From Halarcobacter sp. (GTDB lineage Bacteria; Campylobacterota; Campylobacteria; Campylobacterales; Arcobacteraceae): 64,000 nt of DNA. Below the pieces are notes generated by a model that was not told the origin of the DNA, did not search any database, and saw only the letters and a program-made list of their open reading frames with translations. The DNA is taken from contig JBNKRE010000006.1 of NCBI GenBank assembly GCA_050296315.1, positions 89,760 through 153,759 on the forward strand. The letters run 5' to 3'. The position numbers and the translations under genes were made by a program. Shown one piece after another: positions 7,928 through 14,772 of the stretch. The stretch's first letter is position 1. The number at the start of each line of letters is the position of its first letter.

Positions 7928-7941
7928 TTGATTTGAATCAA
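7928..7941 (+). promoter_or_regulatory. Perfect FNR-consensus box upstream of Cys-rich microprotein
   Basis: TTGATTTGAATCAA; TATAAT at 7964-7969, 22 nt away. Confidence 0.85.
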
Positions 7942-7994
7942 TATAAAAGTAGTAATTTTTAAGTATAATCAATTTATAAACTTAGGGGTAGATT

Positions 7995-8183
7995 ATGTTT
8001 TTTAATCTTTTTAAAAAAAAGAAGTATATTAAGATGAAACTTCCAAAATATGTATGTAAACATTGTAAATATACTTGCAAAAATTGTGATATGCTTTTTT
8101 GTTATTCTTGTCATATGAATGAAGCTAACCCTTGTCCTAAATGTGGAAAAAGAAATATTGACTATCAAAAAAATGATTCTTAG
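7995..8183 (+). CDS. 62-aa Cys-rich putative metal-binding microprotein (4 CxxC)
   Basis: CKHC-x3-CKNC-x4-CYSC-x7-CPKC; AGGGG RBS; dedicated promoter. Confidence 0.75.
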   Translation: MFFNLFKKKKYIKMKLPKYVCKHCKYTCKNCDMLFCYSCHMNEANPCPKCGKRNIDYQKNDS

Positions 8184-8881
8184 TAATCAAAATTTCTATA
8201 CTTGATTTTAAAACTATACTTATTGTCAAATTCTCTAAAAAACTCTTTAGTTATAGAATTTTTAGGAATATTTGATAAAGTAGGAACAGAATTTAAACAT
8301 TTTTGAATATAGTAAGTTTTCGTGTATTTATATTTTTGTAAAACTTCTAAAATCTCATTTATATCATTTTTTGAAAAAAGTGAATTATGGTATGTAGTTC
8401 TTACTTCAAAATCCAAATTTGAATCTATTAATAGTTTTAAACTCTCAACAACTTTTTCATACTCTTTGTTTTTTGTAATTTTAAAAAAGTTTGTTTTAGA
8501 GGTTTTAAAATCCAATGCAATAAAATCTAATAAATTGTTTTTTATAAGCTTTTCTAAAACTTGTGGTTTGAGACCATTTGTATCAAGTTTTATTTTAAAA
8601 TCCATTGATTTTATATATTTACAAATATCATATATCTCTTTATTTAAAGTTGGCTCTCCACCTGATAAAACTACACCTTTTAGAAGATTTTCTCTTTGTT
8701 TCAAAAAAGGGATTAGTTGTTCAAAACTATATTTGCCTTTTTTTAAAACAATATCAGGATTATGGCAATAATCACACCTCATATTACAACCGTTAAACCA
8801 GATAATACAAGATGGATATTGCTCAAAATCCAGAAGAGTAAAAGGGGCTAAACTATCAATTATCTTTTTTTTGCTCCACAA
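8180..8881 (-). CDS. nrdG: Anaerobic ribonucleotide reductase activating radical-SAM enzyme
   Basis: GCNMRCDYCHN CxxxCxxC, GVVLSGGEPT, KLDTNG; downstream of nrdD; TTG start uncertain. Confidence 0.92.
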   Translation of the reverse strand: MWSKKKIIDSLAPFTLLDFEQYPSCIIWFNGCNMRCDYCHNPDIVLKKGKYSFEQLIPFLKQRENLLKGVVLSGGEPTLNKEIYDICKYIKSMDFKIKLDTNGLKPQVLEKLIKNNLLDFIALDFKTSKTNFFKITKNKEYEKVVESLKLLIDSNLDFEVRTTYHNSLFSKNDINEILEVLQKYKYTKTYYIQKCLNSVPTLSNIPKNSITKEFFREFDNKYSFKIKYRNFDY

Positions 8882-8996
8882 AATATACCCTTTGTTTATG
8901 TTCAGCTTTTTTTCCTATATTAAAACTCTCAACTGGTCTATGATAACCCATAACTCTAGTATAAACAATACATTTTGTTCTCTTTTTTTCTTCCAT
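8856..8996 (-). CDS. 46-aa stand-alone NrdD C-terminal glycyl-radical domain
   Basis: MEEKKRTKCIVYTRVMGYHRPVESFNIGKKAEHKQRVYF...; RVxGY glycyl-radical motif; own RBS (TAAGGAG, 6 nt before ATG) overlapping the nrdD stop. Confidence 0.88.
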   Translation of the reverse strand: MEEKKRTKCIVYTRVMGYHRPVESFNIGKKAEHKQRVYFVEQKKDN

Positions 8997-9006
8997 CTTA
9001 TTCTCC

Positions 9007-11103
9007 TTAGGCAGATTTTGTATTGTGTTGAATCTCTTCATCACATTTTGGGCAATATTCATGCTCCCCATTTAAATAACCATGAACTGGACAAATTGAA
9101 AATAAAGGTGTCAAAGTTATATATGGTAATTTAAAATTTTCAAGAACTGTTTTTAAAAATAGTTTTGTAGATTCTGTTGAACTTAGTTTTTCACTCATAT
9201 ATAGATGCAGTACCGTTCCACCTGTATATTTAGTTTGTAAAATATCTTGTTTTTGTAAGGCTTCAAATGGATCATCTGTAAAATCAACTGGTAGTTGAGA
9301 AGAGTTTGTATAGTAGATTTCATTATCAAATCCAGCTTGAAGAATATCTGGATATCTTTTTTTATCCTCTTTTGCAAATCTATATGTCGTACCTTCTGCT
9401 GGTGTTGCTTCAAGGTTATACAAATTTCCACTTTTTTCTTGAAAAGATGTGATTTTTTCTCTTATGAAATCTAAAATTTCAGAAGAGAACTCTATGCCAT
9501 AATCACTTGTAATATCTTCTTGGTCATTGGTAAAATTTCTTATCATCTCATTTATACCATTTACACCAATAGTTGAGAAGTGGTTATTAAAACTTTTTAA
9601 ATATCGTTTTGTATATGGATATAAGCCTTGTTCAAATAGTTTGTTTATAATAACTCTTTTTTTCTCCAAGGTATTAAATGAAAGCTCTAAAAGTTTATTT
9701 AATTCATCATATAGTTTTTGTTTATTGTTTTTATATAAGTATCCAAGTCGTGCCATATTTATAGTAACCACTCCAATACTTCCTGTCATCTCAGCACTTC
9801 CAAATAAACCATTTCCTCTTTTTAACAATTCTCTTAAATCTAGTTGTAATCTACAACACATACTTCGTACAGCTCCTGGCTTATATGCATTTGGATTTTC
9901 TACTTTTTCTCCTTGTTCATTTGTCATATATTGACTTCCTACAAAGTTTTGAAAATAGCTTGAACCAATTTTTGCACTATTTTCTAAAAGAATATCTACA
10001 TTTTCTCCATCCCAATCAAAATCTTCAGTTATATTTACTGTGGGAATAGGGAAGGTAAAGGGTTGTCCATTTTTGTCCCCGTGGGTCATAATCTCATAAA
10101 AGGCTTTGTTTATTAGATTCATCTCTTTTTGAAAATGTTTAAAAGTCAATTCAGTTAATTTATTTACCCCTTTGTCTTTTAGTTTTTCTTTTATGTTTTC
10201 ATTCTCTTCAAATTGTTCAAATAGATGTTTATCGTTGTATGTTGGAAACTGCTCTTTTAAATCTGATGGTACATTCCAATCAAGTGTGATATTTGTAAAT
10301 GGACTTTGTCCCCATCTTGATGGAACATTTAGATTATAAATAAAACTAGTAAGTGCTTTTTTAACCTCTTTATATGATAAATCATCCATAAAAACATAAG
10401 GTGCCAAATAGGTATCAAAAGAGCTAAAAGCTTGTGCTCCAGCCCATTCGCTTTGTAAAATACCTAAAAAATTTGCCATTTGACTAAGAGCTTGTCTAAA
10501 ATGTTTTGCAGCTTTGCTTTCTACTCTTCCTCTTACTCCGTTAAACCCTTCATTTAATAATTGTCTTAAACTCCAACCTGCACAATATCCAGTAAGACAA
10601 TCTAAATCATGAATATGGATATCTCCATTTCTATGGGCAACTCCTTCTTTAACATCATAAACTTTATCAAGCCAATAGTTTGCGATAACTTTTCCTGCAA
10701 GATTGTTTACAAGTCCAGAGTTTGAGTAACCAGTGTTTGCATTTGCATTTATTCTCCAGTCATTTTTATTTATATACTCTTCTACACTTTTAGTTGAATC
10801 AACAAAAGTTGTATCTTGGTTGAGTCCTAGTATATGTTCCCTTTGCATCTTATGCAAAAATCTATATGTAATAAATGATTTCATTACACTAAAATATCTA
10901 TACTCAAACAATGATTTTTCAATATAATCTTGAATATCTTCCACATTATGATTTTTATTTTCATGTAAGTTTTGTATTACTGAAACAAAGATTATTTTAT
11001 TGTAAGTAATCTCTACACTTCTAAATGCTTTTTTTATAGCATCCTCTATTTTATAAGCTTTAAATGGTTCTTTTGAACCATCTCTTTTTATTACAAAATC
11101 CAT
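9007..11103 (-). CDS. nrdD: Class III (anaerobic) ribonucleoside-triphosphate reductase, lacking the C-terminal glycyl-radical loop
   Basis: N-terminal ATP cone (VIKRDG), IHIHDLD, GYCAGWS, SMCCRL finger loop, YNLEATPAEG, C-terminal CPVHGY..YCPKC; no RxxGY. Confidence 0.95.
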   Translation of the reverse strand: MDFVIKRDGSKEPFKAYKIEDAIKKAFRSVEITYNKIIFVSVIQNLHENKNHNVEDIQDYIEKSLFEYRYFSVMKSFITYRFLHKMQREHILGLNQDTTFVDSTKSVEEYINKNDWRINANANTGYSNSGLVNNLAGKVIANYWLDKVYDVKEGVAHRNGDIHIHDLDCLTGYCAGWSLRQLLNEGFNGVRGRVESKAAKHFRQALSQMANFLGILQSEWAGAQAFSSFDTYLAPYVFMDDLSYKEVKKALTSFIYNLNVPSRWGQSPFTNITLDWNVPSDLKEQFPTYNDKHLFEQFEENENIKEKLKDKGVNKLTELTFKHFQKEMNLINKAFYEIMTHGDKNGQPFTFPIPTVNITEDFDWDGENVDILLENSAKIGSSYFQNFVGSQYMTNEQGEKVENPNAYKPGAVRSMCCRLQLDLRELLKRGNGLFGSAEMTGSIGVVTINMARLGYLYKNNKQKLYDELNKLLELSFNTLEKKRVIINKLFEQGLYPYTKRYLKSFNNHFSTIGVNGINEMIRNFTNDQEDITSDYGIEFSSEILDFIREKITSFQEKSGNLYNLEATPAEGTTYRFAKEDKKRYPDILQAGFDNEIYYTNSSQLPVDFTDDPFEALQKQDILQTKYTGGTVLHLYMSEKLSSTESTKLFLKTVLENFKLPYITLTPLFSICPVHGYLNGEHEYCPKCDEEIQHNTKSA

Positions 11104-14032: not shown

Positions 14033-14046
14033 TTGATTTAAATCAA
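14033..14046 (+). promoter_or_regulatory. Perfect FNR-consensus box upstream of Crp/Fnr gene (autoregulation)
   Basis: TTGATTTAAATCAA; TATAAT at 14069-14074, 22 nt away. Confidence 0.85.
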
Positions 14047-14109: not shown

Positions 14110-14772
14110 ATGAATAATATCAAAGATATAATAAAATCGATACCACTATTTACAGCTTTGCCAGATGATGAAATTGATTTGTTGTCTACAATGTCTCACG
14201 TATCAAAGTACAATGCAAACACAGTACTTTTTTATGAGTCAGAAACAACAGATGAATTACTTTTTTTGGTTGAAGGCTTACTAAAAGTATATAAAATAGA
14301 TAAGTATGATAATGAGATATTTTTATATTATGTCTACCCAAACTCTATGATATCAGAATTATCAAATCTAAATGACAATAAAATCAACTGTTTTTCAAAT
14401 AGTGAGTTTTTAAGAGATAGTGTGATGCTTTGTGTGAATTTTAAAAAATTTAAAGAAGAGTTCTTAAGTCAAAATGATTTGGTACAAAAGTTTATCAATG
14501 AACTTATTTATAAAAATCAACAACTTCAATGTATTGTAAATAGAGAATTGGTTTTTGATGCAACTTCAAAAGTTGCTTTTATGCTTACAAATGATTTGGA
14601 TATGTTTAATCACCTAAAAAGAAATGAAGTATCATTGTTGCTACATATACAGCCAGAAACTTTATCAAGGGTATTAAAAAGATTGGTTAGAAATGGTACA
14701 ATATCGATTGATAAAGGGATTGTATCTATTGAAAATGGTGATGAATTAAAAAGTATCTATTTAGGATTATAA
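14110..14772 (+). CDS. Crp/Fnr family regulator, NssR/DNR-like (no FNR Cys cluster)
   Basis: cNMP-type sensing domain, HTH with ETLSR recognition helix; 220 aa. Confidence 0.92.
   Translation: MNNIKDIIKSIPLFTALPDDEIDLLSTMSHVSKYNANTVLFYESETTDELLFLVEGLLKVYKIDKYDNEIFLYYVYPNSMISELSNLNDNKINCFSNSEFLRDSVMLCVNFKKFKEEFLSQNDLVQKFINELIYKNQQLQCIVNRELVFDATSKVAFMLTNDLDMFNHLKRNEVSLLLHIQPETLSRVLKRLVRNGTISIDKGIVSIENGDELKSIYLGL

Follow-up and report, generated by a model that had tools for sequence, protein, structure and literature searches.

A predicted metal-binding Cys8 microprotein family of the Arcobacteraceae and its probable place in a Crp/Fnr-type regulon of Halarcobacter sp.

Comparison of the short gene at positions 7995-8183 (+) of the window (the whole 64,000-nucleotide stretch of Halarcobacter sp. 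DNA that was analysed) with its homologues suggests that it encodes a very basic protein with two predicted metal sites built from eight cysteines. By its sequence it founds an undescribed and unnamed family within the known kind of small CxxC metal-finger microproteins. The reading that we adopt, with moderate confidence, is that of a new two-metal Cys8 family whose representative in this genome is expressed as part of a nitrate/NO/low-oxygen regulon.

Direct reading of the sequence bears out the ORF that an earlier note on this DNA had described. It opens with an ATG, ends at a TAG (8181-8183) and specifies a 62-aa product, MFFNLFKKKKYIKMKLPKYVCKHCKYTCKNCDMLFCYSCHMNEANPCPKCGKRNIDYQKNDS, in which the cysteines C21/C24, C28/C31, C36/C39 and C47/C50 are arranged as CxxC-x3-CxxC-x4-CxxC-x7-CxxC. 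The Cys8 core, comprising residues 21-50 (8055-8144, +), shows the consensus CKHCK-x-[TS]-C-x2-C-x3-[FY]-C-[YFW]-[STA]-C-x5-NPCPxC in alignments and is the predicted two-metal site. It is preceded by a basic-aromatic N-terminal tail, residues 1-18 (7995-8048, +), of the form MF-x-[WLF]-[FLI]-F-K-K-K. The protein is strongly basic, with a pI of 9.4 and 14 lysines and arginines against four acidic residues, and its homologues, which are likewise about 60 residues long, have pI values of 8.8-9.8, typically near 9.3. A ribosome-binding site, AGGGG, lies 6 nt 5' of the ATG (7984-7988, +). The gene for the activase of the class III ribonucleotide reductase, nrdG (8180-8881, -), is convergent to the microprotein gene and its ORF ends at 8180; this gives a 4-nt overlap (8180-8183), also reported in the earlier note and found here to be incidental rather than conserved.

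Among 185,579 species genomes, a pattern scan recovered 49 intact copies. Their hosts belong to Arcobacter, Halarcobacter, Aliarcobacter, Malaciobacter, Poseidonibacter, Marinarcus and unclassified Arcobacteraceae bins, the only labels outside the family being one MAG named 'Candidatus Paceibacteria' and one entry named just 'bacterium'. Among 24 genomes of the same genus, six-frame searches detected the gene in single copy in 17, and they also found it in several other genera of the family; a profile search over 401 genomes across the class placed the microprotein in 15 of 24 Arcobacteraceae versus 0 of 377 other Campylobacteria. Six-frame and profile searches of Campylobacteraceae likewise found no homologue. 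On this sequence evidence the family appears to be restricted to Arcobacteraceae.

Examination of the aligned copies reveals that all eight cysteines are kept in each of the 49 distinct intact codon sequences, with synonymous TGT/TGC variation, and that they are invariant in 37/37 aligned protein sequences. V20, K22, H23, K25, P48, K52 and N54 are also invariant in the 49 codon sequences although their codons vary (four different codons are used for the valine), and N45 and P46 are invariant or nearly so. For the core, pairwise dN/dS has a median of 0.18 (721 pairs), and conservation of the MF-x-[WLF]-[FLI]-F-K-K-K terminus fixes the start codon. Together these observations make it very probable that the gene encodes a real Cys8 protein under strong amino-acid-level purifying selection across about 50 species, as the earlier note had supposed when it called the ORF very likely a real gene; the conservation of the Cys pattern in homologues, on which that view depended, holds in 49/49 intact copies. 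The alignments further show that in three distant homologues from metagenomes the tail and all eight cysteines are retained but His23 is not, and two of the three adjoin a gene for a nitroreductase or a flavodoxin-like quinone reductase. One copy, in genome G015 (L018 / L037), has CPRY in place of CPRC, with loss of the last cysteine, and lacks the MF start while retaining an FNR-type box; it is probably decaying. In another (L047) the reading frame is broken within the poly-A run formed by the N-terminal lysine codons.

The selection observed at the amino-acid level also bears on the notion that the ORF is not a functional protein at all, being instead a chance ORF, a regulatory uORF or leader peptide, or a RiPP precursor. 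The small size of the product, the radical-SAM genes nrdG and moaA nearby in the window and a weak match of 1 of 17 members to the Cys-rich peptide model TIGR04165 (E 0.024) could be cited in its favor. Set against these are the purifying selection itself, the convergent gene that follows the microprotein and leaves it nothing to lead, the absence of a conserved maturase, protease or exporter from the differing neighborhoods of the individual clades, and the nature of NrdG and MoaA as ordinary housekeeping radical-SAM enzymes. We therefore consider a non-protein or RiPP interpretation extremely improbable.

The earlier note had been unable to assign the protein to a family, and systematic searches lead to the same outcome. 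No significant match was obtained in Pfam, where the best scores were 12.7-15.7 bits against gathering cut-offs of 25.5-27 (Zn_ribbon_3, Zn_ribbon_ISL3 and others), nor in NCBIfam, PHROGs or PADLOC. A search of the region against Rfam gave nothing significant. A profile compared with all PDB sequences retrieved RING fingers as its best, non-significant matches (E 0.019-0.15). Every public named copy is annotated 'hypothetical protein', and a literature search returned nothing on this microprotein. HMMER over 1.84 billion representative proteins yielded only 11 matches, yet six-frame searching finds the microprotein in most genomes of the family, a disparity that illustrates the under-annotation of small proteins.

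AlphaFold2 models improved from a mean pLDDT of 69.5 with 17 sequences to 77.2 with 37. In the latter, 10-residue blocks over the Cys8 core average 75-87, with two short hairpins predicted, one around the first CxxC and one around the last, and short helices that begin at C28 and C36. The structure model is thus only moderately confident. Foldseek comparisons of two AlphaFold2 models against the PDB gave no match below E = 2, the top non-significant matches being rubredoxin (E 2.3-7, TM 0.33-0.43), the IBR domain and the zinc finger of thioredoxin 2. Several known families were considered and rejected: 1) the RING finger, given the PDB profile E-values above, Foldseek E-values of at least 2.3 and the lack of a histidine where ligand position 4 of the C3HC4 cross-brace aligns; 2) rubredoxin, given the lack of a significant fold match and separations between the Cys pairs of 3, 4 and 7 residues, where rubredoxin has two CxxCG knuckles some 25-30 residues from each other, set around an aromatic core; 3) the 2[4Fe-4S] ferredoxins, since CxxCxxCxxxCP motifs and a match to Pfam Fer4 are both absent; 4) YgbA_NO (PF11756), since the microprotein has no Pfam match and a true member elsewhere in the genome scores 52 bits.

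The 5' region of the microprotein gene contains a Crp/Fnr-type palindrome, TTGATTTGAATCAA (7928-7941, +), that matches TTGAT-N4-ATCAA with 0 mismatches, followed exactly 22 nt past the box by the -10 hexamer TATAAT (7964-7969, +); hence the box, -10 element and ribosome-binding site named in the earlier note are all present within 7928-7988. Relative to a predicted transcription start near 7976, the center of the box lies near -41.5, which is the class II arrangement. A simple sigma-70 scan omits this promoter and there is no -35 hexamer, as expected for an activator-dependent class II promoter. The bare box is only mildly enriched in the window, with 16 sites (<=1 mismatch) versus 10.4 +/- 3 expected, and 3 of 100 shuffles of the window reach 16. 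A genome-wide search was also made with a composite promoter, defined as TTGA[TC]-N4-[AG]TCAA + 22 nt + TAnnnT. The 22-nt spacer gives 16 sites versus 1-9 for eleven other spacers, and 9 of the 16 fall inside the window. These precede napA, nnrS, the microprotein, moaA, hcp, a cytochrome c gene and a Crp/Fnr gene, with one further site, read on both strands, that has no gene. Elsewhere in the same genome a box, 22 nt and TAnnnT stand in front of genes for a Cys-rich YgbA_NO protein (C2:416103), a hemerythrin (C13:43634), a NapC/NrfH-type tetrahaem cytochrome (C23:4613), a CopD-like membrane protein (C1:39131) and a cupin (C14:19774). The promoter type common to napA, nnrS, hcp, YgbA_NO and hemerythrin, together with the recurrence of the box in 24 of 50 microprotein loci, upholds the proposed tie to an anaerobic or NO-type regulon, and the microprotein gene probably belongs to this Crp/Fnr-type regulon in the present genome.

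The apparent co-regulation, in this genome, of the microprotein gene with hcp, moaA and nrdDG invites comparison with a rubredoxin-like iron electron carrier, with one or two centers, that would feed Hcp or the radical-SAM activases of the regulon. The CxxC and CPxCG knuckles, the position of rubredoxins at the head of the non-significant Foldseek matches and the lack of a reductase gene adjoining hcp in this genome are compatible with such a carrier. Nevertheless, the Foldseek E-values exceed 2 at TM <= 0.35, the Cys pairs lie far closer together than those of rubredoxin, linkage to hcp or redox enzymes is not conserved in Arcobacteraceae, and the microprotein is very basic where electron carriers are typically acidic. 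An electron-carrier role is accordingly rather improbable.

A candidate activator is encoded in the window itself. The Crp/Fnr-family regulator gene at 14110-14772 (+) codes for the Pfam domains cNMP_binding and HTH_Crp_2 and is preceded by a perfect box, TTGATTTAAATCAA, at 14033. Its recognition helix keeps the E-x2-SR type of motif (ETLSR). True FNR senses oxygen by means of a [4Fe-4S] cluster held by three cysteines near residues 20-29 and one central cysteine. The N-terminal part of this cluster is absent from the regulator, which has no cysteine in its first 90 residues and only three overall, scattered in the contexts INCFS, MLCVN and LQCIV. The lack of the N-terminal Cys cluster points to an NssR/Dnr-like protein, not an oxygen-sensing FNR, and together with the domain composition it is the basis on which we class the regulator as an NssR/Dnr-like member of the Crp/Fnr family. 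The term 'FNR box' used in the earlier note thus fits the DNA, in that the box is FNR-type with 0 mismatches, but not its predicted reader. This regulator is likely to be the trans-activator of the microprotein promoter.

We next to these data set those from the 50 microprotein loci, in which a class II FNR-type promoter was scored as a box with <=1 mismatch, a 21-23 nt spacer and TAnnnT. Such a promoter lies 5' of the microprotein in 24 of the 50 loci, as against 18 of 402 control neighboring ORFs (4.5%), and is the commonest regulatory context among them; the distance from box to ATG is 64-77 nt, apart from single cases of 47 and 113. In a few further loci the box has two mismatches and the -10 lies just 5 nt ahead of the ATG, as would suit a leaderless mRNA. 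Within the clade in which the gene lies between mqo and ileS, ten loci (L051, L062, L068, L074, L078-L080, L083, L084 and L088) have the -10 element 5-6 nt before the ATG and no Shine-Dalgarno sequence; such proximity suggests that the microprotein mRNA is probably leaderless there. In the nhaD-guaA clade, about nine loci (L053, L055, L060, L061, L065, L069, L070, L072 and L073) have a good ribosome site and no recognizable promoter before the microprotein; an intrinsic terminator hairpin is located about 15-20 nt before the ATG in this clade.

About nine loci bear an operator, TGTACA-N5-TGTACA, instead of the FNR-type box. This element has an 11-bp period, is often paired 140-180 bp apart and was seen at L092-L109 (genomes G002, G006, G008, G021, G022 and G027). 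In about nine species it overlaps the -35 region of the microprotein/ileS promoter, and it also marks ackA-pta, actP, acnB with a divergent acyl-CoA ligase gene, sdh/frd, mqo and prpB. The idea that it is a variant of the NO regulon was rejected, since it marks carbon/TCA genes in those genomes, and by its targets it is classed as the operator of an ArcA-like TCA/acetate regulon.

The gene neighborhoods are equally varied, with at least six different settings and no conserved synteny among the 50 loci, which rules out a single conserved operon partner. The most frequent settings are: 1) between a divergent mqo-like gene and ileS-nfu (15 loci); 2) between nadB-nhaD and guaA, directly past a terminator (10 loci); 3) convergent with a hemerythrin-PAS_10 gene (at least 8 loci). 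At other loci it is divergent from nnrS or HPP. In one species (L063) it lies directly upstream of a Crp/Fnr + NarX-like pair, with the Crp/Fnr gene on the same strand. Genes related to NO or O2 (nnrS, HPP, truncated globin, hemerythrin-PAS_10 or the Crp/Fnr gene) occur within three genes of the microprotein in 15 of the 50 loci. Five genomes (G024, G004, G007, G010 and G019; L022-L025 and L028) encode a same-strand string of the microprotein, DUF7897 and a truncated globin, with one FNR-type box in front. The DUF7897 protein of this string has 624 aa and a HEYGH motif, and may be a further nitrosative-stress gene product.

Half of the loci (25 of 50) lie in the housekeeping contexts mqo|ileS-nfu and nadB-nhaD|guaA. 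The family members there are without this box, about nine having the TGTACA-N5-TGTACA operator and about nine no recognizable promoter, so an NO-specific role would not be universal, and our functional claim is kept weak: that the thiolates of the microprotein serve an NO- or redox-linked function is a tentative suggestion. The same distribution is the natural starting point for a different account, in which the microprotein is a small basic zinc finger that binds nucleic acid, the ribosome or RNA polymerase as a general regulator or accessory factor, and nitrate/NO control in some species is one of several expression regimes. The location beside ileS in 15 loci and guaA in 10, pI values of 8.8-9.8 across the family and the lysine-rich N-terminal tail are in line with this account, as is a weak, non-significant profile likeness to ribosomal protein L37a, transcription factor E and the zinc ribbons of RNA polymerase; archaeal C(P)XCG microproteins, moreover, show pleiotropic regulatory phenotypes (PMC11241148). 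On the other side, significant homology to any nucleic-acid-binding finger is lacking, no translation or transcription operon is conserved save for the position before ileS in one clade, and the FNR-type promoter remains the most frequent regulatory context. We regard such a general factor as unlikely.

The earlier note had also offered the microprotein as a partner of the ribonucleotide reductase activase, and it is this suggestion that the comparative data contradict. The convergent 4-nt overlap with nrdG occurs in the window as well as in G017, a relative with 98% identity, and there is a very weak NCBIfam likeness to the C-terminal zinc site of NrdD (E 0.03-0.1); both could speak for a dedicated partner of NrdG. 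But nrdG adjoins the microprotein only in these 2 of the 50 loci, nrdD lies 0.5-2 Mb from the microprotein gene in the other complete genomes that carry it, and nrdD is found in nearly all same-genus genomes whether or not the microprotein is present. The window nrdD is itself an outlier, with 97% identity to that of G017, about 70% to those of congeners and 73-77% to those of other genera and families, which suggests a recent arrival at this site and a probably recent adjacency to nrdG; horizontal transfer may have replaced the nrdDG cluster. With adjacency so limited, synteny refutes the partnership as a general explanation and the adjacency appears coincidental, leaving a dedicated role with NrdG highly improbable. 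The window nrdD is found in two frames: a 698-aa ORF at 9007-11103 (-) matches Pfam NRDD positions 2-534, and an overlapping 71-aa ORF at 8856-9071 (-) matches NRDD positions 531-562, the glycyl-radical end. On the minus strand between 7762 and 8183 the nrdG stop (8180) and the microprotein gene are not separated by a terminator, and the sole terminator-like hairpin there is at 7783-7762. Transcripts reading through from nrdDG would thus be antisense to the whole microprotein gene and its promoter and, as both appear to be driven by the same regulator, transcriptional interference is possible.

Returning to the two-metal Cys8 protein of a nitrate/NO/low-oxygen regulon, we propose the following model. 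The Cys8 core would most likely fold around two tetrathiolate metal sites, with zinc as the default guess for the metal and iron as another possibility, and with the ligands arranged sequentially or in a cross-braced manner. In this genome the local NssR/Dnr-like regulator would read the FNR-type box near -41.5 and drive class II transcription under nitrate, NO or low oxygen, so that the microprotein would be made together with the periplasmic nitrate reductase, NnrS, Hcp, MoaA, the YgbA_NO protein and hemerythrin. The metal-thiolate centers could be the working part: they might act as a switch or sink, reactive to redox or NO, or give a small adaptor its scaffold. Docking on a partner protein, nucleic acid or membrane might rely on the basic tail together with the invariant residues K22, H23, K25, N45, K52 and N54 at the surface.

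A more specific version of this model can be entertained. NssR-type regulators bind DNA regardless of NO, and their mode of NO sensing is unexplained (PMC4601167), which makes it conceivable that the Cys8 microprotein supplies the signal-sensing part missing from such a circuit. Its metal-thiolate centers would react with NO or oxidants, and the protein, once modified or stripped of metal, would use its basic tail to dock on the Crp/Fnr regulator, or else on RNA polymerase at class II promoters, thereby switching the regulon on. The arrangement at L063, with the microprotein directly upstream of the regulator gene, has a bearing on this proposal. The orthologue of the regulator is more widespread than the microprotein and occurs in many genomes without it; this leads us to reject an obligate pairing of the two, and it also counts against the sensing role, which we deem a long shot.

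The hosts of the family are environmental and food-borne Arcobacteraceae, and the metal content and partner of the microprotein, once defined, would add a component to the nitrosative and anoxic stress biology of Campylobacterota. Its very compact Cys8 architecture would join the catalogue of metal-binding microproteins. Should the sensing role be true, the microprotein would be the first example from bacteria of a compact two-metal finger with this architecture; should it prove to play a minor part as a purely structural zinc finger, the gain would go little beyond a useful annotation.

Among known systems, the closest in general form is the class of archaeal C(P)XCG microproteins. Haloferax volcanii HVO_2753 has 59 aa and four C(P)XCG motifs, with an NMR structure (6YDH), and binds one zinc rather than two, such that predicted four-Cys sites can be empty (PMC11241148). 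Four Cys pairs therefore need not mean two zinc ions. The Arcobacteraceae microprotein has in common with this class a length of about 60 residues, four Cys pairs, two predicted tetrathiolate sites, the lack of an enzymatic domain, a lineage-restricted distribution and a function that is not deducible from sequence. It differs in showing no detectable homology, in having a full CPXCG only in its last pair (C47-P-K-C-G), in the tighter spacing of its pairs (3, 4 and 7 residues), and in being a strongly basic bacterial protein with a conserved N-terminal tail and a Crp/Fnr-type promoter.

With the eukaryotic cross-brace two-zinc modules of the RING, IBR, FYVE and MYND/HIT fingers it shares a plan of four ligand pairs, eight metal ligands in all, that spans 30-50 residues, and in the non-significant profile matches its C-x2-C-x4-C-x2-C middle and C-terminal CPxCG knuckle align with those of RING. 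It departs from RING in lacking both a histidine ligand and a helix as long as that of RING, and just 3 residues separate its first two pairs. The YgbA_NO family (PF11756, 'nitrous oxide-stimulated promoter') offers a parallel of another sort, being likewise small, Cys-rich, annotated without a function and placed in an NO-responsive regulon; in E. coli its member is part of the NsrR regulon. It is nonetheless another family, of about 110 aa and with another Cys pattern.

At the level of regulation, the nearest counterpart is the NssR system. The NssR site is TTAAC-N4-GTTAA, whereas the box here is FNR-type, TTGAT-N4-ATCAA, and the regulator is likened to NssR by features and not by orthology. 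These features are a Crp/Fnr-family regulator without the Fe-S Cys cluster, a small regulon and boxes of the class II type. The likeness extends to the target genes, in that the microprotein of five relatives precedes a truncated-globin gene on the same strand, and globins are the targets of NssR in Campylobacter (PMC4601167).
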